64,000 bases of DNA, taken from assembly GCA_947176745.1 (NCBI GenBank), contig CAMWRV010000001.1:44220-108219 (forward strand), in the 5' to 3' direction. Made by a program: the position numbers and the translations under genes. Positions 18,535 to 58,528 of this stretch are shown here, piece by piece. This stretch comes from an uncultured Muribaculaceae bacterium (lineage in GTDB: Bacteria; Bacteroidota; Bacteroidia; Bacteroidales; Muribaculaceae). Numbering within the stretch: position 1 is the first letter of the stretch; every line of letters begins with the position of its first letter. The notes under the pieces are model-generated. The model was not told the origin of the DNA. It was given only the letters and a program-made list of their open reading frames with translations, and did no database searches.

Positions 18535-19847
18535 GCAGCTTTATTGTCGAGGGAGGTCACTCGCTTCATGGCGAGATCTCGATCAAAGGCGCAAAGAACG
18601 AGGCGCTCGAAGTGATCTGTGCCACTCTTCTTACCTCGGAGAAAGTTATTATCTCGAATCTCCCGCAGATTTCAGATGTGCGCAATCTGATCGCTCTGCT
18701 GGCCGAGATGGGGGTAAAGGTGAAGTATATGACCCCTTCGGAGGTCGAGTTTCAGGCCGATGAGATAGATCTTTCCTATATCACCGGCGATCAGTTTCGA
18801 AAGAAGGCTGAATCTCTGCGAGGCTCGGTCATGGTGATGGGGCCTCTTGTTGCGCGTTTCGGCAAGGCCGTGATGCCTCGGCCGGGTGGCGACAAGATCG
18901 GTCGCCGTCGTCTTGACACTCATTTTGTGGGGCTTCAGAATCTCGGAGCACGGTTCAGTTATAATTCCGATACGCACACCTATCATATCGATGCTCCGGA
19001 GTCCGGCCTCAAGGGTTGCTACATGCTTCTCGATGAGGCTTCTGTGACCGGTACGGCCAATATCATAATGGCGGCGGTGCTTGCGAAGGGTGTCACTACT
19101 ATATATAATGCGGCATGCGAGCCTTATATTCAGCAACTGTGCCGTATGCTTGTCCGCATGGGTGCGGTGATCGACGGAATCGGCTCAAATCTGCTGCGAA
19201 TAACAGGTGTTGCCGAACTCGGAGGCACCGCTCATCAGCTTCTGCCCGACATGATAGAAGTCGGCAGTTTCATCGGCATGGCCGCCATGACGGGGTCCAA
19301 TCTGCTCCTGCGTGATGTCGCCACAGAAGAGCTCGGTATGTTGCCGACTGCTTTCAGCCGGATCGGTGTCAATCTCAAGATCGAAGGGAATGATATCCGC
19401 ATAGACCAGAAGGAGATTTATCGCATCGACGAGTTTATTGACGGTTCGATCATGACCGTCTCCGACGCCCCGTGGCCGGGACTGTCGCCCGACCTTCTCA
19501 GCATATTTCTTGTAGTGGCCACACAGGCCGAGGGATCGGTCATAATTCATCAGAAGATGTTTGAGAGCCGCCTCTTCTTTGTCGATAAACTCCTCGACAT
19601 GGGTGCACGGGTGATCCTCTGCGATCCCCACAGGGCTGTTGTCATCGGTGCGGGAAAATTCCATTCTCTGCGTGCCACCGACATGGTGTCGCCCGATATC
19701 CGCGCAGGTATCGCGATGCTTATAGCGGCGATGGGAGCGAGGGGTACAAGCCGGATACAGAACATAAACCAGATTGACCGCGGATACGAGAATATCGATC
19801 GGCGTCTCAACAAACTCGGCGCCAAAATCATTAGAATAGAAGATTAA
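18531..19847 (+). CDS. murA: UDP-N-acetylglucosamine 1-carboxyvinyltransferase
   Basis: 438 aa. ISIKGAKNEALEVICATLL and PGGDKIGRRRLDTH are present. This is the Asp-type active site (GGDKIG) seen in some MurA proteins. Confidence 0.93.
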   Translation: MSSFIVEGGHSLHGEISIKGAKNEALEVICATLLTSEKVIISNLPQISDVRNLIALLAEMGVKVKYMTPSEVEFQADEIDLSYITGDQFRKKAESLRGSVMVMGPLVARFGKAVMPRPGGDKIGRRRLDTHFVGLQNLGARFSYNSDTHTYHIDAPESGLKGCYMLLDEASVTGTANIIMAAVLAKGVTTIYNAACEPYIQQLCRMLVRMGAVIDGIGSNLLRITGVAELGGTAHQLLPDMIEVGSFIGMAAMTGSNLLLRDVATEELGMLPTAFSRIGVNLKIEGNDIRIDQKEIYRIDEFIDGSIMTVSDAPWPGLSPDLLSIFLVVATQAEGSVIIHQKMFESRLFFVDKLLDMGARVILCDPHRAVVIGAGKFHSLRATDMVSPDIRAGIAMLIAAMGARGTSRIQNINQIDRGYENIDRRLNKLGAKIIRIED

Positions 19848-19875
19848 TAGACCACATCCTACAAAAATAGACGTT

Positions 19876-20409
19876 ATGATAAAAAAGGAGGATATAGTCG
19901 CGATAGGCAAGTTCCAGAAGACGCACGCCTTGAAAGGGGAGCTGAACGCGCTTCTCGACATTGACGGTGATTATGCTGCCGACGGACATCCGCTGATCGT
20001 TGATATCGACGGCATATACGTACCGTTTTATGCCGAGACGGTGAGACCGAAAGGCGCGGAGTCGTTTCTTGTCAAATTGCGCGACATCGATTCTCAGGAG
20101 AAGGCGCAGGAACTCGTAAACAAAGAGATCTTCGGTCTGCGCTCCGATCTTGTAGAATATTTTGATGATCCTGACATGGAGATCGTGGCCGATTTTGTCG
20201 GTTACAAGGTGGTTGACTCCCGTCTGGGAGAAATAGGAAGCATCGAGGATGTCGACGACTCTACGGCCAATGTGCTGTTTGTTGTCGTTACAGACGATGG
20301 CGAAACCGTCTATATCCCGGTTGCCGAGGAATTCATAAACGCGGTCGACGACGAGCGCAAGGTGGTTGAGACCACACTGCCCGAGGGCCTTGTCGATCTA
20401 AATGTATAA
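19876..20409 (+). CDS. rimM: Ribosome maturation factor RimM
   Basis: 177 aa. IGKFQKTHALKGELNA (RimM N-terminal barrel) and a PRC-barrel-like C-terminus. Confidence 0.85.
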   Translation: MIKKEDIVAIGKFQKTHALKGELNALLDIDGDYAADGHPLIVDIDGIYVPFYAETVRPKGAESFLVKLRDIDSQEKAQELVNKEIFGLRSDLVEYFDDPDMEIVADFVGYKVVDSRLGEIGSIEDVDDSTANVLFVVVTDDGETVYIPVAEEFINAVDDERKVVETTLPEGLVDLNV

Positions 20410-20731
20410 GATTATGAGCGAACTTGCAAGATTTGACGAGGATGAGGCGGTAAAATTCATACGTGCCGCTCTATCTGACGGGATAAACTCCCGCATTACT
20501 GACGACGACATCCTGTATGTCATCGACACGATATGGGACTGGTATGAGAAGAACGGTTATCTCGATATCAACGCCGATATCACCGATGAAGAGGAAATGA
20601 AGACAGACGAGCTCACGGCATATGTTGCCAAGGAACTCAGGCGTGCCGGAGAACTTGACATCACGCGCGACGAGCTTGAGGATATAATCAAAGCGGAATT
20701 GCAGTATGAAGAATCGATCGATGAGTTTTAG
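20402..20731 (+). CDS. Small acidic hypothetical protein
   Basis: 109-aa ORF with core-like composition, flanked and overlapped by neighbouring genes. An alternative ATG lies at 20414. No family recognised. Confidence 0.5.
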   Translation: MYKIMSELARFDEDEAVKFIRAALSDGINSRITDDDILYVIDTIWDWYEKNGYLDINADITDEEEMKTDELTAYVAKELRRAGELDITRDELEDIIKAELQYEESIDEF

Positions 20732-50776: not shown

Positions 50777-50815
50777 AAAAGGAGTGCAGCCGTCATGGCC
50801 GCACTCCTTTTTTAG
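50777..50815 (+). terminator. Rho-independent terminator of the efflux operon
   Basis: aaaa ggagtgcagcc gtcat ggccgcactcc tttttt. Confidence 0.8.
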
Positions 50816-51125: not shown

Positions 51126-51133
51126 TACCTTTG
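51126..51133 (+). promoter_or_regulatory. -7 promoter box TACCTTTG
   Basis: Matches TAnnTTTG, 60 nt upstream of the ATG at 51194. Confidence 0.4.
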
Positions 51134-51193
51134 CATCGAACAATCGCTTTAGCGCTTTGCCAAAGCAAAGAAACATTAAAAACACCAAAAGAT

Positions 51194-51394
51194 ATGGAAC
51201 CTATTACAAGTAATGATTTCCTTAACTCAGTTCTCGAAACTGAGGCATGGAAAGAGGTCTCTCAGAGCGGGAGCCTCAGCATGACGATGATTGAGAAGTT
51301 TGCCGACAAACTTGACTGGGAAGAAGTCAGCGGCAACAGTAATGTCATCTGGACGGTGGAGGGCATCATCATCTTTTGCTTTAACCATCTTTGA
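51194..51394 (+). pseudogene. Probable 5' remnant of a repeat-protein gene, truncated where it runs into the 3' end of the FtsZ-like gene
   Basis: MEPITSNDF...MIEKFADKLDWEEVSGNSNVIWTVEGI shows about 1.3 units of a xIEKFxDKLDWxxxSxNxxxxWT repeat. It then reads into unrelated IIFCFNHL* and overlaps the convergent gene by 14 nt. Confidence 0.35.
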
Positions 51395-52118
51395 TTCCCT
51401 GACATCTCCAGACCTCCTTTTCTGCCAATATTGCGGACAATTTGATTTCATCGCCATTTAGATTTTCGTCACTGTTAACCGACCAAATTACGTTGACTGT
51501 TTCCGGAAGTTCTGATATCAGTTGCTGTATGCTTGCCATTTCACTCATCGCCAATGGAGTTGAACGATTTGGATTATAATAGAGATGTATGGACAAATAA
51601 TCAACACAGCTAAAATCCAATTCGTTAAAAGCAGATCCCAATTTTTTAGCAGCTTCTTTAATATCATTACCTGACGTTGATTTTACCGTGAAGTAATCGG
51701 AATCTCGGAATATGGTACTCAGGTCATTGAAGTCGAATGATATCATACACGAGGTGACAATGGGCTGCAGGAGAGCCTTTATTATTTCCGGATATTCATT
51801 GCGCGACTCACATAACATTATACTGTCGTAACAAGAAGGATCAGCATCCTCTGAAAACCCGAGAGTCAGAACCCCGGCATCGTGAAATGTATTGGCTATT
51901 CTATTTGCCGTTTCTTCTAAGTCAGTAAAGATTATTATTGCAAGTTTGTCCTCGTTGTTAGGAATACATTCATAGGGAGGTCCTGCAATTTCAGCAGAAA
52001 CGCCGTCTAATCCCAGTGAGTTGATCTTATTGATAACTTCTTCGATTCCTGTTCCGACACCTATCACTCTGAATGAGGCCGGCAATATTTGCAGATGATC
52101 TGAGTTATAATATTCCAT
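51381..52118 (-). CDS. Degenerate FtsZ/tubulin-fold protein lacking the GTP-binding signature loops
   Basis: By-eye full-length alignment to FtsZ: [17 protein letters not shown] / [43 protein letters not shown] / [47 protein letters not shown] / [38 protein letters not shown] / TVVIGTSLDPDMNDELRVTVVATG. Start is the ATG at 52118 or the TTG at 52142. It overlaps the upstream gene's stop. Confidence 0.6.
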   Translation of the reverse strand: [245 protein letters not shown]

Positions 52119-53172
52119 TATGATTTGGTGATTTAATAGCAATTATTTGAAGTGCAACTTCGTCTCTTAAATTTTCATCAGTTCCTTTGATAAGTGAGGG
52201 AACTATGTCTCGGAGTATAAACGTTGGCTCAAAGGCAGTGTACAGTCGGTTATCTTCTTCTTCTGTTAAAGGACTTTCTTTACCTGAGTAGACTACCATA
52301 ATAATATCATCGGCATCCTTACATAAATCATCCAATACTGGATGAAATTTTAATAACAGATCTGTTATATAGTCTATGCGGTCAGCTTTTCCATAAACGT
52401 GTGATTCACGCCATGTCTCATATATTTCTCCTGCATTTAAGATCTGATATTCTATCATTTCCAATGGGACATTCGTATGTTTGATGATACTATTTATCAA
52501 ATGCTGACGTTTATCAAGTTTTTTTAGACTCTCCATTCGTGATCTTATACGATAGTCTCGTTTACGCTTACTGCGATTCATACGCATACGACGTTTACTT
52601 AGTTCATGCCATTCTCTCCCGGAAAGATAGATTGACATACAATCAGGCTCATCTTTTAACTGTTGTTTCAAATCTCTTCGTGTTTCAGGTGAGACATAGG
52701 GCAGGATGTTTTTAACTTTAAGTTCTTTTACTTGATAACCGTATTTAGTATATGCGAGATTTCCGATTTCGCAATGCAATGTTTCCTTTGTTTGTCGAGG
52801 AGTAAAACCATAGAACGTCATTCCCCACAGTATAGCACCTGCAAGTTCTGCATCTGTAAATGAGTTACTATCAGGTTTAACAATAGTCTTTCCTGCTATG
52901 TTTTCCCAATAATCTCCTTCGACATTATCGGCAAATAAAGGGAGATTACCAAATAAAAAACACTCTTCTCTTAGAATCATGTCAAACGTCACTTCACCGC
53001 CATCGCCGTTAAATTCAGTATTCCTGATTATATCAAAAGCCTCTTTATAACCATAAAGACATGATACTGAATCCTCGTTTCGATGGGTATTTTTTAAAGC
53101 ATTGACAATTTCGTCAAAACTAAGGGAGTTGAATAATTCTTTTACCGTAATTGCAATTTTATTTTCTGGCAA
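52105..53172 (-). CDS. Hypothetical 355-aa protein, translationally coupled to the FtsZ-like gene
   Basis: Long AT-rich ORF. The only possible start is the TTG at 53172-53170, six codons after an in-frame TGA. It has a central basic segment (KRRMRMNRSKRKRDYRIRSR). No family recognised with confidence. Confidence 0.55.
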   Translation of the reverse strand: MPENKIAITVKELFNSLSFDEIVNALKNTHRNEDSVSCLYGYKEAFDIIRNTEFNGDGGEVTFDMILREECFLFGNLPLFADNVEGDYWENIAGKTIVKPDSNSFTDAELAGAILWGMTFYGFTPRQTKETLHCEIGNLAYTKYGYQVKELKVKNILPYVSPETRRDLKQQLKDEPDCMSIYLSGREWHELSKRRMRMNRSKRKRDYRIRSRMESLKKLDKRQHLINSIIKHTNVPLEMIEYQILNAGEIYETWRESHVYGKADRIDYITDLLLKFHPVLDDLCKDADDIIMVVYSGKESPLTEEEDNRLYTAFEPTFILRDIVPSLIKGTDENLRDEVALQIIAIKSPNHNGIL

Positions 53173-53385
53173 ATTTAGATTTACGGTGTATCAGATTTGG
53201 TGACAACCTGAAAAATATTCACAATATTCAAAAGAAGTCAGATTTGAGCATCGAGAGCACGCTTCCCATGTTTTTCTCCCTCAAACGAGTAGTACAAGGT
53301 AAATAGCGAGCATACCCTACACTGCATACGCTGGAACGCCGTGCATTGGCCGTCTCAAAATCTATTGCTGCAAAGTCGGTCATTC

Positions 53386-54291
53386 TCAGTCGTTTTTATA
53401 CAGTTGGTACATATCAGAAATCCACCCTTTCATAGTTCTGCGTAAATGAGTCGGTTCAATCACCTCGACCATTGAGCCGACTTGAAGCAGCTTCATTACA
53501 AAATCGTAAGTCGGAGCCAGAAAAAGCTCAAAATCCGCATACTCCCCGACATCCTCAATCAAACGCTGACTATGATGAAGAGGCAACGATTTAAGATAAT
53601 GCTTGTGGTCTTCATTAGCCCTTATAATGATTTTCTCCGGTTTCTCTCCTGTTCCTACTACTATACCGTATGCTGTGGAAAAGTATTCCTCTGCATTAAA
53701 ATCCTTTGGGAGTTTGAATGTTTCTGATGTTACTTCAACATTCTCCATGCGGTCAAGACCGTAAAGACGAATATCACCATAACGGATGTTATGAGCCAGT
53801 ACATACCAGCGATTCTCAAAGAGTCTCACACAATATGGCTCAATTGGAAAGGTATAGCCATGCGATTTCTTGAAAGGACGATAAGTTATAGTTACGATGC
53901 GATTATCTTTCATTGCCTCCAGGATGGTAGTGAGATGATCGCGTCCGGAAGGTATCTCTTCAACCAATATACGATCCTTTAATGACAGATTCTCCCCGAT
54001 GACATTGCCAACCGCATAAGAGTCAAGCATCCACTTTTTGAGTTTGTCCTCCTCAATATCCTGAGGATTGGCAATGAAATATAAGTAGCCACCGGTCTTC
54101 TGACAATCTATCATGATGCTGAACTGGTCATAAATAGCCTCTCTCCACCGGTTGAATGTAGCACGGTGGAGCGGACGGCAATCGCTCAGTTCCTTGTGGC
54201 GTTGCCACTTATCGGAAAGATCCTTATGAGAAATCTTTCCGGCACGGCGGATCGTTTCAATCAGCCATGTGTATTTCGGCAGTTGGTTCAT
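53386..54291 (-). CDS. WYL-domain transcriptional regulator (wHTH-WYL-WCX architecture, BrxR/CapW-like)
   Basis: 301 aa. N-terminal wHTH (YTWLIETIRRAGKISHKDLSDKW). WYL core ITYRPFKKSHGYTFPIEPYCVRLFENRWYVLAHNIRYGDIRLYGLDRM. C-terminal extension ...VEVIEPTHLRRTM. Confidence 0.85.
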   Translation of the reverse strand: MNQLPKYTWLIETIRRAGKISHKDLSDKWQRHKELSDCRPLHRATFNRWREAIYDQFSIMIDCQKTGGYLYFIANPQDIEEDKLKKWMLDSYAVGNVIGENLSLKDRILVEEIPSGRDHLTTILEAMKDNRIVTITYRPFKKSHGYTFPIEPYCVRLFENRWYVLAHNIRYGDIRLYGLDRMENVEVTSETFKLPKDFNAEEYFSTAYGIVVGTGEKPEKIIIRANEDHKHYLKSLPLHHSQRLIEDVGEYADFELFLAPTYDFVMKLLQVGSMVEVIEPTHLRRTMKGWISDMYQLYKND

Positions 54292-55139
54292 GTTAATGAT
54301 TTAATTATGTCGTCAACTAAAGCTTCAAAATGAGTTTTAAAATACTCACTTCTTTGTCCGCGAGTAGATGGATGAATTGTACGGGCTGCATATTTCACCC
54401 CGGGGATATTAATTCGATCAAGAAACAATCCTTCCCTTATCTGATGGAAAGAGTCATCAGACAGACCAAATTTTTCTTTTATGTCGTTGTCTGCATAAAA
54501 TCCTGTTAGAAAGATTATGATATCCGGTTTAAGTATTTTCACTTCTTCCCTAACAACATTGAAATACCTACATTCTATTTCGCGAATTTCTGGTGTGGGC
54601 TTTCCACAACATTGACCAAAGTCTTTGCCACCCCGGCTAATCTTTGATATATTATTCCATACGACTCCTATATTATAATTAACAAGACGATATGCCAACT
54701 GCTGAATCAACTGATCCTGACGACGGGTAAATATAGACTTTCTAATTCCACTTTCCTCATAGCAGTAGCCATGATAAATGTCTCCCAATCCATAGTACTC
54801 TTCTTCTCCGTCAATATGTCTACCCATAATTTCGGTAACAATATCATCGGAATTACGGAGATTGAAATTATAACTGCCAAATGGATATTTACTGCGATTA
54901 TACTTGTCGTTCCAGTTATTCGTTTCTCTACCGAAAACCATCACACGCAGATCGGCGTTCTCATACGATCCGTCATCGTTGAGTTCAATAAGCAGCGGTA
55001 ACGCAGGTTTGATAGCCTCAGGATCATCGAACAGAGGTTTTACAGCCGAATAAAGTCCCGGAATTTTGGAAGCGTAGAGATTAACTAATTTGTCGTTTAG
55101 TGACTTCTCTTCAATTGGGATGTATTCTATATCTTTCAT
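54288..55139 (-). CDS. Divergent uracil-DNA-glycosylase-superfamily protein (family-4-like motif layout)
   Basis: 283 aa. LRVMVFGRETNNW sits at the motif-A position (GExxG-like). VVWNNISKISRGG...GKPTPEIREIECRYF...LKPDIIIFLTG resembles the N-x-x-K...P-x-x-E-x-x-C...P-x-I-I-x-LG segment. ARTIHPSTRG sits at motif B (HPS). It overlaps the WYL gene by ATGA. Confidence 0.55.
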   Translation of the reverse strand: MKDIEYIPIEEKSLNDKLVNLYASKIPGLYSAVKPLFDDPEAIKPALPLLIELNDDGSYENADLRVMVFGRETNNWNDKYNRSKYPFGSYNFNLRNSDDIVTEIMGRHIDGEEEYYGLGDIYHGYCYEESGIRKSIFTRRQDQLIQQLAYRLVNYNIGVVWNNISKISRGGKDFGQCCGKPTPEIREIECRYFNVVREEVKILKPDIIIFLTGFYADNDIKEKFGLSDDSFHQIREGLFLDRINIPGVKYAARTIHPSTRGQRSEYFKTHFEALVDDIIKSLT

Positions 55140-55242: not shown

Positions 55243-57129
55243 TCATCTAATGTGAGGTCTCTCCGTTAGTTCTCGCCAGTTTTTAATCATGTTGACGAGG
55301 CAGCTTGCCACAAAGTATTCGGGTGTGGTCGGAGGAAATCCCATCCATGGATCATGCCGGCGTAAATCGCGGACTTTGGTCGCAAGGCATGTTGTCCATG
55401 CTTCTCTCGTGATAAAAAAATCCTCATGATGAAGAATGGAATCGTCAGATACATACGAATCATGAACAGCAAGGAATCCACCTTTATCCTCATAGGGATT
55501 ATGGTTCACTTCCCTTGACAATTCTTTTAGTTTTACAAAAGTCAATTCGCACTCCGCCAGCTGATGGTCATAATACTCTCGTTCATTCTTTCTGATAAAT
55601 TTTCGGACTTTGTCCCAGTTTGTGTATCGGAAATAGTATTCCAGCCTCATATCTATGTCAGTAAGATCATCATCATTTATCTGGTTACAATGGATACCTC
55701 TGTTGAGCCGGAGTAATTCATCAATCTCAGATCTATTCACTAAGGAATCAGGCCGGGATACAACGCTCAAAGCTGAGTGCTGTGGAAGATATATCGATTT
55801 AATGGGATTGCAGGAGCAGTCAAGGTGGGTGAGGTTAGGACAGTGGCGTAAATCCAATTTCGTTAGTTCGTTGTCTCTACATACTACTCCTGTAAGAAAA
55901 TCTTTCCGATAAGAGCCCGGTGTAAGGTCGAGATTGGTAAGGCACTGTCCGACGATTGATAATTTCCTGAGTCCGGTACAATCGCCTAAATAAATAAAAT
56001 GCAGTTGACGGGGATAGCGACTGAAATCAAAGCCTTCGATAATCTTTTCCCATAATGATTCAATGTTGATTGTATATGTTCCCGGCTGAGAGTAAGAGTG
56101 ATGGCATGTAACGCTTCCCGTCTTGTCCGAGTCTCCATATTTATCGCAAGTTCCGTCTCCCCAGTCAACAATCAGATGACAATAAGGAGCAATTTCTAAT
56201 GAGAATTCGCAAACAGAATTGTCAGATTTTATCTCAACTTCCAATATCATCCAATCATGTTTCATAATTCCGCGCCGATGAAGCATACACTGTTGACGCA
56301 TCTTTTTTATAAAATGATCGTTGTCGTTGATGTATGGACTTTCAAGGTACTTTATATATAAATCGAATTGTTTGATTTTGCTTTCATAGCGACCATATAG
56401 GTCGCCCAGAGACCAATAGACTTCTGGTTCAACACAACAATACATATCGTAATATCTCTCAAGATATTCTCTGGCAAGCTCATGATTCTGCTTTGTGCCG
56501 TGTCCGTAATAATACATTAGTCCGAGGTATTTCGCTGTATGATCATCTTTCAAATTTTTTAAAGTATTGAAGGCCGACTCATATTCTTCCGATTCATAGT
56601 AATATGTTCCCAACGTGAATGTATGCCGAAAATCTCCTTCGGATGCTTTCTTTATATAATACTCACGCACCGCAGGATTGTGAAGCAATTTCGAAAGTCC
56701 ACACCCTATAGTTGCACTACACCCAACAATTATTTCTACAAATTCACGATCGGTCCAGTCAAGCCTGCGTTCAGCGATATCTTTCCCGAGCTCGCATGTT
56801 AGTATTTTGGCCAATGCGTTATTGCAGTTCTCATATCCGACATTCTTCCACTCAGTTAAGCGGTCAATGGAATATTGAAATTCCTCTTTACTCACATTAC
56901 TTAAGAAAAATGTCAGATTCATAACATTCATCGAGATAAACGAAGTGCCAAACTCGTCTGTCAGCCTATTGGCAATCCGAAGATACTCCTCGATGCAATC
57001 AAGTCCTTCGATTAGCTGCGGACGAATCGAACCATCCGAATTCCATATTTTTTCTCTGAGTGGCCTTAATATTCCTGATGCCTTTTTGACTAAGTCCCGG
57101 GCTCTCTTTTCATTATCTTCTCTTTTCAT
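55243..57129 (-). CDS. Large signal-less multidomain protein: unknown N-domain, Sel1-like repeats, PKD-like domain, leucine-rich repeats, unknown C-domain
   Basis: 628 aa. AKYLGLMYYYGHGTKQNHELAREYLER is a Sel1 repeat. VDWGDGTCDKYGDSDKTGSVTCHHSYSQPGTYTINI is a PKD signature. LRKLSIVGQCLTNLDL...NELTKLDLRHCPNLTHLDCSCNPIKSIYL are LRRs. The N-terminus MKREDNEKRARDL has no signal peptide. Confidence 0.65.
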   Translation of the reverse strand: MKREDNEKRARDLVKKASGILRPLREKIWNSDGSIRPQLIEGLDCIEEYLRIANRLTDEFGTSFISMNVMNLTFFLSNVSKEEFQYSIDRLTEWKNVGYENCNNALAKILTCELGKDIAERRLDWTDREFVEIIVGCSATIGCGLSKLLHNPAVREYYIKKASEGDFRHTFTLGTYYYESEEYESAFNTLKNLKDDHTAKYLGLMYYYGHGTKQNHELAREYLERYYDMYCCVEPEVYWSLGDLYGRYESKIKQFDLYIKYLESPYINDNDHFIKKMRQQCMLHRRGIMKHDWMILEVEIKSDNSVCEFSLEIAPYCHLIVDWGDGTCDKYGDSDKTGSVTCHHSYSQPGTYTINIESLWEKIIEGFDFSRYPRQLHFIYLGDCTGLRKLSIVGQCLTNLDLTPGSYRKDFLTGVVCRDNELTKLDLRHCPNLTHLDCSCNPIKSIYLPQHSALSVVSRPDSLVNRSEIDELLRLNRGIHCNQINDDDLTDIDMRLEYYFRYTNWDKVRKFIRKNEREYYDHQLAECELTFVKLKELSREVNHNPYEDKGGFLAVHDSYVSDDSILHHEDFFITREAWTTCLATKVRDLRRHDPWMGFPPTTPEYFVASCLVNMIKNWRELTERPHIR

Positions 57130-57131
57130 TG

Positions 57132-57482
57132 CTAATATGACTCAAAAATATCTTCTTCATCGGCGCGTTCTTCCGTTGAAATATTCAAATAACTATTGCA
57201 ACACACTTCATCCTGCCATAGAATAATGTCGCTTACGGTTAGAGTTCCATCTGGAGTCTGTATAATGAAATAATATTCGTACTCTGTAAAATCTAACTGA
57301 ATATATAATTGCAGGTAATCTTCATGTTCTGTCAATTCGATTCCCATAATAGCAAGCCACATTTCCTGAGCCTTAATGAAGTCGGCAAACGAAGTATATT
57401 CCTCCGCTACTGCCGAAAAATATGCCTGCCGCTTACGCATCATTTCAATGCGCTCTTTAGTGGACATAGTTGTTAAATCCAT
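57132..57482 (-). CDS. Small acidic hypothetical protein immediately upstream of the Sel1/PKD/LRR gene (2-nt gap)
   Basis: ORF 57132-57509. I prefer the ATG at 57482 (MDLTTMSTKER...) because a TAATTTTG -7 box at 57507-57514 overlaps the upstream TTG. Confidence 0.5.
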   Translation of the reverse strand: MDLTTMSTKERIEMMRKRQAYFSAVAEEYTSFADFIKAQEMWLAIMGIELTEHEDYLQLYIQLDFTEYEYYFIIQTPDGTLTVSDIILWQDEVCCNSYLNISTEERADEEDIFESY

Positions 57483-57520
57483 ACGAAACTTTTTAAATTT
57501 TGGAAGCAAAATTATTTCAG

Positions 57521-57590
57521 AGCTGACGCATTTTGCGGTACACCATAAAAATTATCAAAAATAATAGCTGACGCATAAAATGATACACCA
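57521..57590. promoter_or_regulatory. Two 25-bp imperfect direct repeats (45-bp period) in the divergent promoter region of the island
   Basis: agctgacgcattttgcggtacacca (57521-57545) and agctgacgcataaaatgatacacca (57566-57590). -7 boxes lie at 57507-57514 (minus) and 57597-57604 (plus, TACCTTTG). Confidence 0.6.
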
Positions 57591-57621
57591 AAGCATTACC
57601 TTTGCGATAAAAATAGAAAAC

Positions 57622-58215
57622 ATGAAAATCCTTCACCTTTCCGACACTCACAACTGCCATCATCGACTCCGGGATTTACCCGAAGCGGACGTGGTCGTTC
57701 ATTCCGGCGATTTCTGTATGGTCGGAACCGAACAGGAAGCCCTTGATTTCCTTAACTGGTTCTGTGACTTACCATACAAACACAAGATCTTTATCTGTGG
57801 CAACCACGATGAATGCCTTTATGGAGCGAACATAGAAGGTCTGGACTCAAATGTTTACTTTCTATGCAATTCGGGCGTTGAGATTGAAGGTATTAAATTC
57901 TATGGCATACCTATGTTTTTGAGCGACTGTGTTACAGAACGTCAAAACCAAAACTATGCTAAAATTCCGGATGATACTGATGTGTTGATAACACATTCTC
58001 CGGCATACGGTATTCTTGACTTTGATGATAATATCCACTATGGTTCCGAAGAACTACTTGAAAAAATATCTACGCTCAATCTTAAAGCACATCTGTTTGG
58101 ACACATTCATGCTCAGCGTGGATTGGAAATTATAGACAACGCATTATTTTCTAATGGAGCCATTCTTGACGCTGACTATATAGCGACCTCATCTCCCAAT
58201 GTGATTACAATATGA
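57622..58215 (+). CDS. Small calcineurin-like metallophosphoesterase
   Basis: All MPE motifs are present: LSDTH, HSGDF, GNHDE, ITHSP and GHIH. I place the start at MKILHLSDTH. Confidence 0.85.
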   Translation: MKILHLSDTHNCHHRLRDLPEADVVVHSGDFCMVGTEQEALDFLNWFCDLPYKHKIFICGNHDECLYGANIEGLDSNVYFLCNSGVEIEGIKFYGIPMFLSDCVTERQNQNYAKIPDDTDVLITHSPAYGILDFDDNIHYGSEELLEKISTLNLKAHLFGHIHAQRGLEIIDNALFSNGAILDADYIATSSPNVITI

Positions 58216-58247: not shown

Positions 58248-58301
58248 TAATACAAAAGTAAGCATACAGATAATTAATACAAAAGTAAGCATACAGATAA
58301 T
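58248..58301. repeat. Perfect 27-bp tandem duplication at the right edge of the island
   Basis: taatacaaaagtaagcatacagataat x 2, read directly. Confidence 0.95.
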
Positions 58302-58468
58302 GCTATCATAGTCGATAGCGTAATCCTCACCAATGTGATTGTTGAGGGTATTAGATTTATGATTTTGTTATGGTACATTATTGCTTGTTTTCCGAGAAGT
58401 TACAGTAAACATAAACAACCATAACTAAATCATAATCTCAAAGTTCCCGGTTTTATAATTGTAGATAT

Positions 58469-58511
58469 AACAAAATATGGTGCAACTCGTTGAGTTACAC
58501 CATATTTTGTT
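58469..58511 (-). terminator. Rho-independent terminator of dnaK
   Basis: aacaaaatatggtgcaactc gtt gagttacaccatattttgtt, a stem of about 20 bp with one mismatch. It is A/T-rich at both ends and lies 18 nt downstream of the dnaK stop. Confidence 0.75.
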
Positions 58512-58528
58512 ATTGATTATTATGTGTC

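Follow-up and report, generated by a model that had tools for sequence, protein, structure and literature searches.

Introduction

What does a protein with the fold of FtsZ do when it has lost the nucleotide pocket and kept the face that is inserted into a neighbouring subunit? This question is raised by a locus on contig CAMWRV010000001.1 of an uncultured Muribaculaceae bacterium (GenBank assembly GCA_947176745.1). The stretch analysed, 64,000 nucleotides (nt) long, is called the window, and coordinates are positions in it unless a related locus is named. A preliminary description, made from the letters of the DNA, had pointed to a short FtsZ-like open reading frame (ORF) without a GTP pocket, coupled to an ORF of 355 amino acids (aa) and located behind a WYL regulator gene. 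We call the 245-aa product of the short ORF blind FtsZ, and a 226-aa protein encoded by related cassettes mini-FtsZ. Both ORFs were found at the positions given before:

51381..52118, minus strand: blind FtsZ, a pseudo-GTPase FtsZ derivative; 245 aa from ATG, 253 aa from a TTG at 52142
51723..51740, minus strand: T7-loop codons S127-F-D129-F-N-D132 of blind FtsZ, aligned to N207-V-D209-F-A-D212 of E. coli FtsZ
52105..53172, minus strand: 355-aa DUF6557 ORF, an optional cassette member, upstream of blind FtsZ

Since the homologues of blind FtsZ are 238-245 aa long, the ATG at 52118 is a likelier start than the TTG at 52142. From this ATG the gene overlaps the stop of the 355-aa ORF by 14 nt (38 nt from the TTG), and the overlap reported earlier is therefore real.

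Results

Blind FtsZ descends from FtsZ

Single sequences were nearly blind to the relationship. NCBIfam TIGR00065 (ftsZ) matched residues 121-240 of the protein with an E-value of 5.8e-4. A Pfam scan of the same sequence gave no match, including none to Tubulin or FtsZ_C, and the best phmmer match in the PDB had an E-value of only 0.22. Apart from the NCBIfam match, significant matches needed family profiles or a model made with AlphaFold2 (AF2). When a profile of 37 blind-FtsZ sequences was searched against the PDB, the best 36 matches were all FtsZ chains (best E 1.3e-6), and three weaker matches (E 0.5-1.3) were unrelated to FtsZ. With hhalign, blind FtsZ was aligned to the Bacteroidota FtsZ P0374 at a probability of 97.9% and an E-value of 5.2e-13. 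The alignment runs from residue 15 to 243 of blind FtsZ and from 21 to 336 of P0374, which is the entire globular core.

The AF2 model of blind FtsZ has a mean predicted local distance difference test score (pLDDT) of 87.7 and a predicted template-modelling score (pTM) of 0.85. A Foldseek search of the PDB with this model returned FtsZ in all of the top 50 matches, with E-values of about 2e-13 and template-modelling (TM) scores of 0.6-0.74; phage tubulins and FtsZs matched less well. The likeness to FtsZ over both the N- and C-terminal domains, which had first been seen by eye, was thus recovered by the profile and by the structure search.

Relatives of blind FtsZ form at least 213 clusters at 90% identity. 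Metagenomes of Muribaculaceae, Duncaniella and other Bacteroidales are their source, and all are 230-260 aa long and either unnamed or annotated as "hypothetical". A profile search of 1.8 billion representative sequences gave 513 proteins at E<=1e-3. This list grades smoothly from about 120 clusters (50% identity) of the short architecture into genuine Bacteroidota FtsZ, and the nearest full-length relatives are the Bacteroidota FtsZs P0357 and P0374. Two intermediates lie between these ends. P0353 (294 aa) keeps T1 (GVGGAG) and has lost T4, and P0352 (673 aa) has an intact T4 and a deletion of T2/T3. The smooth grading and the intermediates show that the family descends from FtsZ. Blind FtsZ is a true FtsZ homologue, with a resemblance far beyond chance, and the ancestral FtsZ most likely belonged to the host phylum itself, the Bacteroidota.

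One face of the subunit is lost and the other is kept

We read the motifs from a profile alignment with Bacteroidota FtsZ and from a family alignment of 211 sequences, with conservation counted over 206 of them. The losses listed in the preliminary description all reappeared. The T1 glycine loop, read before as GTGIEE, is GVGTGIEE in blind FtsZ and GVGGGGDN in FtsZ. T4, the tubulin signature, is replaced by TDLEE with a deletion of four residues, compared with GMGGGTGTG in FtsZ. Across the family, the third and fourth glycines of T1 are lost and T4 has become D-x-[ED]-[DE]. About 40 residues spanning T2, H2, S3, T3 and H3 are missing. Helix H5 (after T5), H6 and the H6-H7 loop are missing as well, which had escaped the earlier reading. 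The N-terminal domain is about 105 residues long, compared with about 175 in FtsZ, and in the AF2 model it consists of five strands with helices H1 and H4 only. Blind FtsZ fails the defining features of the FtsZ GTPase, in T1 and T4 as well as in the T2, T3, T5 and T6 loops, and from this anatomy it is predicted to be unable to bind GTP.

The other half of the molecule is retained. Blind FtsZ has H7, T7, H8 and a complete C-terminal domain (S7-H9-S8-H10-S9-S10). It ends about 10 residues past S10, without the disordered linker and the C-terminal (tail) peptide by which FtsZ binds its membrane anchors FtsA, ZipA or SepF. The T7 loop is SFDFND, compared with NLDFND in Bacteroidota FtsZ, and the T7-H8 block has the family consensus ISYDFNDLxTxLRDS, compared with INLDFNDVxTTLRNG. 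The two T7 aspartates had been said to be kept, and conservation bears this out: D129 and D132 are invariant among 37 close relatives and are found in 184 (89%) and 198 (96%) of the 206 family sequences, respectively. In 94 representatives of at most 50% identity, both are among the positions of highest information content, together with D98, G22, W212 and D217.

In high-resolution structures of FtsZ filaments, H10, S9, H8 and T7 of the upper subunit contact the H6-H7 loop, T5, T3 and H1/H2 of the lower subunit, and growth takes place at the end where T7 is exposed (bioRxiv 10.1101/2021.11.29.470395). Blind FtsZ has all four donor elements (T7 with both catalytic aspartates, H8, S9 and H10). 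Of the acceptor set, T3, T5, H2 and the H6-H7 loop are absent and essentially H1 alone is left. Blind FtsZ is a one-faced subunit that has the donor face only, a sharper pattern than the label GTP-blind under which it was first described. Such a subunit would not be extended by another one.

The upstream gap is the scar of two genes

For the context of the gene, 26 reference proteins were mapped onto 37 related loci (given as L numbers) and the window, 38 loci in all, some of them near-duplicates. The following features were placed from the 5' end of the 355-aa ORF to the regulator gene:

53170..53177, minus strand: TAAATTTG, a Bacteroidetes-type -7 box
53187..53205, minus strand: 19-nt motif TGTCACCAAATCTGATACA, candidate operator or -33 region
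53232..53315, minus strand: internal fragment of mini-FtsZ, interrupted by an in-frame stop; it corresponds to residues 108-135 and is 54% identical
53315..53383, minus strand: 5' end (23 codons) of a gene for a DnaQ/RNase_T-type exonuclease, 96% identical to L007; the remainder is deleted
53386..54291, minus strand: WYL+WCX transcription regulator, 301 aa

The 213-nt gap had been taken as an intergenic gap carrying a -7 box. The box is there. The gap itself is the deletion scar of two genes, exonuclease and mini-FtsZ, and not plain intergenic DNA or a simple promoter region: directly after the WYL stop, 23 exonuclease codons are fused to a 28-codon piece of mini-FtsZ (53232-53383).

Mini-FtsZ is intact in related loci (e.g. 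L006:8212-8892 and L039:6243-6923). It passes the Pfam Tubulin cut-off (38.9 bits, compared with 33). Its T1 (GNGGYN), T4 (GGMTGS) and T5 (PYGFEG) are intact and its T3 is degenerate. The match to FtsZ stops near residue 170 of mini-FtsZ, about residue 178 of FtsZ, so that T7 and the C-terminal domain are lacking. At 90% identity the mini-FtsZ family comprises at least 534 clusters, all of 226-227 aa and unnamed. Judged by these motifs, mini-FtsZ is GTP-competent and the exact converse of blind FtsZ. In L006, L019, L021, L023, L024, L033, L038 and L039 its gene comes directly before blind FtsZ or before the pair DUF6557 and blind FtsZ. Remnants were found in the window, L007/8 and L013. Among the 38 loci it adjoins blind FtsZ in six, besides the remnants, and a second, diverged paralogue occurs elsewhere in five further loci (L004, L014, L020, L027 and L030).

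The TAAATTTG box lies about 18-20 nt 5' of the DUF6557 gene start and is conserved in six other loci. The 19-nt motif, TGTCACCAAWTCTGATACA, stands together with a -7 box 5' of the blind-FtsZ unit, with or without DUF6557, in ten loci (the window and L007, L008, L017, L019, L024, L032, L033, L038 and L039). The motif may be the operator at which the WYL regulator binds, or it may belong to the promoter.

The 355-aa protein is an optional partner

The 355-aa protein matches DUF6557 (PF20194) with 32.5 bits, compared with a gathering threshold of 27.8, over residues 87-132 only (profile positions 90-135 of 144). Its family is well conserved, about 341 aa long, and has at least 309 clusters at 90% identity. 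Besides the N-terminal DUF6557 core, the protein has a long basic helix, NRSKRKRDYRIR. The AF2 model has a pLDDT of 80.5. In a Foldseek search with it, the top 50 matches were all FtsZ (E 3e-5 to 2.6e-4), with a root-mean-square deviation of 3.1-3.6 A over 113-121 columns. It is the last ~150 residues that match; they form a 33-residue basic helix and then H-E-H-E-H-E-E, the topology of H7 plus the C-terminal domain; DxxD is absent at the T7 position. Alignment of the family with the blind-FtsZ family or FtsZ by hhalign gave no sequence signal (E 0.28 and 0.4), and its profile found nothing among PDB sequences. The structural match makes it plausible that the C-terminal half is homologous to the FtsZ C-domain, a homology for which structure is the sole basis since no signal was found at the sequence level.

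The view of this ORF as a coupled partner did not hold. In the survey of related loci that had been proposed for the pair, the DUF6557 gene adjoined blind FtsZ in only seven of 38 loci, and a DUF6557 homologue in L040/41 has no FtsZ-like neighbour. The 355-aa protein is an optional cassette member and not one half of a conserved pair, an outcome that the preliminary description had itself named as a refutation; it refutes the pairing and not the blind-FtsZ gene itself. Where the two do stand together the arrangement can be complete: L038/39, fetched with the DUF6557 protein, contain all three genes in the order mini-FtsZ - DUF6557 - blind FtsZ, and an overlap like that of the window is found there too (17 nt). 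In the window, the canonical start of the 355-aa gene (ATG ACG GTA AAA in homologues, MTVKEL) is ATT (53149-53151), and the TTG chosen by the ORF caller falls within the -7 box TAAATTTG, which is conserved. For these two reasons it is uncertain how translation of the gene starts in the present genome.

Blind FtsZ belongs to a WYL-linked cassette on mobile islands

Across the related loci, the genes follow the order Metallophos (minus strand)...RtcB...[p125] [p283] WYL - RNase_T - [mini-FtsZ] - [FtsK-like] - [DUF6557] - blind FtsZ - p77. This is continued by either a Sno-like AAA_34 helicase with LPD23 or bpMoxR with vWA and YgjP (these alternatives being optional), and then by PLDc_2 - DUF6140 - p171 - (PcfK, PcfJ). 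The most constant neighbour is the WYL regulator, found in 30 of the 38 loci, or 30 of 34 if only those are counted whose upstream sequence is 3 kb or longer. The phosphoesterase is part of the conserved framework (24 of 38). A commoner partner than the 355-aa protein is p77, which stands beside blind FtsZ in 24 of 38 loci and is absent from the window. It is a protein of 74-77 aa with two transmembrane helices and an acidic C-terminal tail, and its gene overlaps or abuts the 3' end of blind FtsZ (L007:10714-10947, L036:10678-10911, L039:8735-8962). A minimal form, WYL - blind FtsZ - p77, was found in L036/37 beside metK and pheT, where blind FtsZ starts 3 nt past the WYL stop.

The co-oriented regulator gene was confirmed by Pfam as WYL+WCX (PF13280, E 1.6e-15; PF25583, E 5.6e-6) and is also matched by the PADLOC WYL model (E 5.6e-30). 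Its residues 1-115 have no Pfam match. The best PDB match of the protein is PafBC (E 6e-5).

Variable cargo of the related loci comprises GmrSD (twice), a reverse transcriptase, Mrr-like and type-I-like restriction genes, HsdM, a YobI ATPase and bpMoxR-vWA. Defence cargo lies at L025:10932-15385 and 19731-20672, L021:15673-20660, L006:17886-20492 and L038:13974-15029. With recognised defence genes as variable cargo, the framework behaves as a defence-island hotspot. The link to WYL and the defence-like setting, both read from the window before, are supported. Insertion sites vary between genomes, and PcfK/PcfJ, DUF6140, the Sno-like AAA_34 helicase and LPD23 are found in L006-L008. The cassette is a mobile framework of the defence-island type, which in some loci is contiguous with genes of conjugative elements. 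No mobility or conjugation genes were found in the window, and no integrase or tra genes were seen within the 10-kb flanks examined.

PADLOC has no defence-system model for blind FtsZ or the 355-aa ORF and recognised only the neighbouring phosphoesterase and WYL protein; as neither ORF matched PADLOC or PHROGs, a known defence system or phage family was rejected. An origin from a phage or plasmid was not supported. The plasmid collection gave no match, and the viral sets gave two sequences only, an unannotated 5.9-kb faecal fragment in the phage collection and one contig in IMG/VR. One copy of the cassette (L017, JAETSI010000066.1) comes from a metagenome-assembled genome labelled Oscillospiraceae and is 77-93% identical to Bacteroidales copies. 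This placement is probably a binning error, or else an inter-phylum transfer.

The island in the window

Further upstream of the regulator, the window has these genes:

54288..55139, minus strand: 283-aa protein, weak UDG-superfamily match, recurrent cassette member
55243..57129, minus strand: 628-aa Sel1 / PKD-like / leucine-rich repeat (LRR) protein by Pfam, recurrent cassette member
57132..57509, minus strand: 125-aa protein of unassigned family, recurrent cassette member
57580..58215, plus strand: calcineurin-like metallophosphoesterase, 211 aa, divergent; PADLOC candidate PDC-S10, E 3e-75

They belong to a block of about 50.8-58.5 kb with a GC fraction of 0.36-0.42, compared with 0.52-0.58 in the surroundings, in agreement with the AT-rich island described before. 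The island is flanked by an efflux operon (outer-membrane factor, HlyD-like protein and pump of the major facilitator superfamily, MFS) and by dnaK. GC-rich hairpins at both borders (50777-50811 and 58467-58513) resemble terminators of the MFS-pump gene and dnaK. An exact 27-nt tandem duplication lies near the right end (58248-58301). When both ends of the island were searched for att-like direct repeats, only short repeats at chance level turned up, and neither a tRNA gene nor the host ftsZ was found in the window.

In the 628-aa protein, the PKD-like (WGDG...HxYSxxGxYTI) and LRR module is homologous to the N-terminus of P0352 (E 8e-8). In P0352 the PKD-like and LRR module is fused to the T2/T3-deleted FtsZ, with a weak ZapA-like stretch between them. 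The fusion hints at a functional link of the LRR protein with FtsZ-like domains.

The cassette has decayed but blind FtsZ is under selection

Downstream of blind FtsZ, the window has two remnants:

51131..51394, plus strand: truncated copy (87 codons) of the 171-aa repeat-protein gene (p171)
51368-51400: scar of the YgjP 3' end, just past the blind-FtsZ stop

In intact loci these sequences lie several kb further on. Together, the two scars show that p77, PLDc_2, DUF6140 and the helicase or MoxR module have been deleted. With the exonuclease and mini-FtsZ also lost, the cassette in the window is a decayed remnant.

The blind-FtsZ and 355-aa ORFs are full length, with no frameshift and no internal stop. 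We calculated pairwise ratios of nonsynonymous to synonymous substitution rates (dN/dS). They are 0.23-0.36 for blind FtsZ (0.30 against L009), 0.24 for the 355-aa gene and 0.06 for the WYL gene. L009 shares the p77 deletion scar with the window, and the ratio of 0.30 therefore shows that blind FtsZ is maintained without p77 and mini-FtsZ. The gene is under purifying selection and has been kept in the absence of most of the cassette. Near-identical blind-FtsZ proteins occur on many contigs (22 member sequences in the P0001 cluster; P0002 on 24 contigs).

Discussion

A proposed donor-face mimic of host FtsZ

Docking of the T7 face onto the nucleotide face of an FtsZ-type partner is the most economical reading of this anatomy. 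Our tentative proposal, which we favour without expecting it to prove right with any assurance, is that blind FtsZ is a WYL-controlled mimic with the donor face only, which would sequester or cap host FtsZ and so delay or block division. Its T7 face would dock onto a genuine FtsZ, at the top face, which carries GTP. Docking may sequester free FtsZ-GTP monomers, whose top face adds to the growing end, and/or blind FtsZ may cap the filament end that exposes nucleotide. It could possibly also trigger futile GTP hydrolysis. Two features make us favour the host protein as the partner. Of the cassette genes, blind FtsZ is the constant one and the FtsZ-like partners encoded with it are optional, which favours a target common to every host. 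The T7-H8 block of blind FtsZ is also close to that of host FtsZ.

By analogy, the WYL regulator would be activated by single-stranded DNA (ssDNA) or another nucleic-acid signal of damage, DNA entry or infection, and blind FtsZ made under its control would delay or block division. The WYL activators DdaA of Acinetobacter and DriD of Caulobacter respond to ssDNA, including DNA that enters the cell, by switching on inhibitors of division (PMC13010146, PMC13004042). They are a precedent for the regulatory logic and no proof that this WYL protein behaves alike. As in the DriD-DidA and DdaA-AciT systems, a WYL regulator here stands beside, or controls, a gene expected to hinder division, with ssDNA as the trigger in those two. 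Unlike blind FtsZ, DidA and AciT are small and unrelated to FtsZ, and the WYL protein of the window shows only distant similarity to the regulators that have been characterised.

Several points weigh against host FtsZ as the target. In E. coli, Du et al. reportedly found in 2018 that FtsZ mutants with a defective top face are much less toxic than those with a defective bottom face, and a donor-only protein may for this reason be a weak inhibitor. Intact cassettes often have the complementary mini-FtsZ next door as an alternative partner. The usual downstream protein, p77, has no place in the model and is left unexplained by it. In the T7 loop, the asparagine at the position of E. coli N207 is variable in the family, and D129 is lost in about 10% of it. 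Finally, a dN/dS of about 0.3 for blind FtsZ is relaxed compared with 0.06 for WYL.

Alternative explanations

The neighbouring families allow wider readings. Mini-FtsZ, blind FtsZ and the DUF6557 protein might act as one set of one-faced subunits, either as a non-polymerising GTPase switch with a composite active site or as a matched pair of cappers for both ends of host filaments, which WYL would deploy at DNA entry or infection; we regard such a set as rather unlikely.

In a narrower version, which we also judge unlikely, blind FtsZ would complete the active site of mini-FtsZ, which has the GTP pocket and the acceptor face, giving a closed, non-polymerising heterodimeric GTPase switch that works independently of host FtsZ. 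The DUF6557 protein may add a second module resembling the FtsZ C-domain, and in the window the system would be broken, with mini-FtsZ deleted. The losses in the two proteins are exactly complementary. Mini-FtsZ has its T1, T4 and T5 pocket and its Pfam Tubulin score, and it stands directly upstream in eight loci, while the window, L007/8 and L013 have remnants of it. Foldseek matches the C-terminal half of the DUF6557 protein to FtsZ (E 3e-5). Oliva, Cordell and Lowe are said to have reconstituted the GTPase in trans from isolated N- and C-domains of FtsZ in 2004. Alpha/beta-tubulin offers a parallel, with one chain giving the catalytic T7 residue and the other the hydrolysable GTP, but both tubulins bind GTP and polymerise, whereas blind FtsZ and mini-FtsZ have each lost one face. 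On the other side, most blind-FtsZ loci have no detectable mini-FtsZ within 10 kb, and purifying selection on blind FtsZ persists in lineages without mini-FtsZ. T3 of mini-FtsZ is degenerate, whereas H8 of blind FtsZ is host-like, and the minimal, widespread form is WYL - blind FtsZ - p77.

It is quite improbable that both ORFs are, in this genome, functionless leftovers of a decaying mobile island. Decay itself is evident: deletion scars flank the two ORFs, the 355-aa gene has ATT in place of its ATG start, p77, mini-FtsZ, the exonuclease, the helicase or MoxR module and PLDc_2 have gone, and mobility genes are lacking from the window. However, neither ORF is interrupted, the dN/dS ratios are 0.30 with L009 and 0.24-0.36 with the other loci, near-identical proteins (P0001, P0002) occur on many contigs, and the promoter and operator motifs are retained.

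We find it very doubtful that blind FtsZ is an immune decoy or sensor. As such it would mimic the surface hit by phage division inhibitors and either protect FtsZ or trigger an effector (e.g. p77) under a WYL repressor like BrxR or CapW. The defence setting agrees with this, from PDC-S10 in the window to the two GmrSD, reverse transcriptase, Mrr-like, type-I-like restriction, HsdM and bpMoxR-vWA genes of related loci, and the WYL+WCX architecture fits the PADLOC models for CRISPR-associated WYL signalling. The T7 face and the C-domain, both conserved, form the surface to which SulA binds (PDB 1OFU is among the Foldseek matches). A small membrane protein such as p77, translationally coupled to blind FtsZ, would suit an effector. 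Yet no effector is consistently linked, p77 being missing in the window and in the L009 lineage. The strict conservation of the aspartates goes beyond surface shape and is not needed in a decoy, neither PADLOC nor PHROG matches blind FtsZ, and we know of no phage inhibitor of Bacteroidales FtsZ.

A TubZ-like role in segregation of the element was rejected, as a protein with no nucleotide pocket and no acceptor face gives no canonical filament.

Relation to known proteins

Blind FtsZ is alike to Bacteroidota FtsZ in homology over the whole globular core, in H7-T7-H8, in the C-terminal domain and in the DxxD of T7, and the motifs LDFND, LYF(N/S)RE and V(I/D)VIW(G/S) are near-identical. The location is different: FtsZ sits in the dcw cluster, blind FtsZ in a mobile island behind a WYL regulator.

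The division inhibitors SulA, MciZ, Kil and CbtA block a longitudinal interface of FtsZ and with it the assembly of the Z-ring, the outcome proposed for blind FtsZ, and are stress-induced or encoded by mobile elements. Their folds are unrelated to FtsZ, whereas blind FtsZ is itself derived from FtsZ. SulA and MciZ bind the T7 (bottom) face; blind FtsZ would occupy the opposite, nucleotide (top) face. Engineered one-faced FtsZ mutants, made in the top or the bottom face to define the polarity of the filament, share the principle: a single competent longitudinal face makes them chain terminators or sequesterers. They are point mutants that still bind GTP, whereas blind FtsZ is natural, heavily deleted and represented by hundreds of sequences.

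To our knowledge, TubZ, PhuZ, CetZ and BtubAB all keep the nucleotide loop. FtsZl1 and FtsZl2 also keep theirs, GGGTG(S/T)G (Makarova and Koonin 2010, PMC2875224). FtsZl1 has kept the N-domain and lost T7 and the C-domain, and thus resembles mini-FtsZ and not blind FtsZ; no member without the nucleotide pocket yet with T7 is reported in that survey (PMC2875224). Besides FtsZl1/FtsZl2 (PMC2875224), the closest mention is of MoxR-vWA ternary systems with "rare FtsZ/tubulin" effector domains (PMC7159879). In the full-text literature we found no description of an FtsZ family that lacks the pocket and retains T7, of DUF6557 or of this cassette, in line with the earlier remark that no system built on a degenerate FtsZ had been described. 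Blind FtsZ belongs to the FtsZ superfamily by descent, and its anatomy and context are unreported.

Significance

FtsZ and tubulin are defined by nucleotide-dependent head-to-tail polymerisation, and a natural family that keeps the inserting face only is a new architecture in the superfamily. Three unnamed Bacteroidales families, with at least 213 (blind FtsZ), 309 (DUF6557 protein) and 534 (mini-FtsZ) clusters at 90% identity, gain a structural assignment and testable hypotheses. Blind FtsZ would also be a ready-made reagent specific for one filament face.

If mini-FtsZ proved to be the partner, a cytomotive filament protein could be split into a closed GTPase switch, and a three-part set would be the first natural system of one-faced subunits in the tubulin superfamily. 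If host FtsZ is the target, blind FtsZ would be the first FtsZ-derived inhibitor of FtsZ, and a natural test of models of filament polarity in a gut phylum that is abundant and little studied. It would then also extend, on mobile islands of the defence type, the theme of WYL regulators that couple nucleic-acid signals to the control of division.

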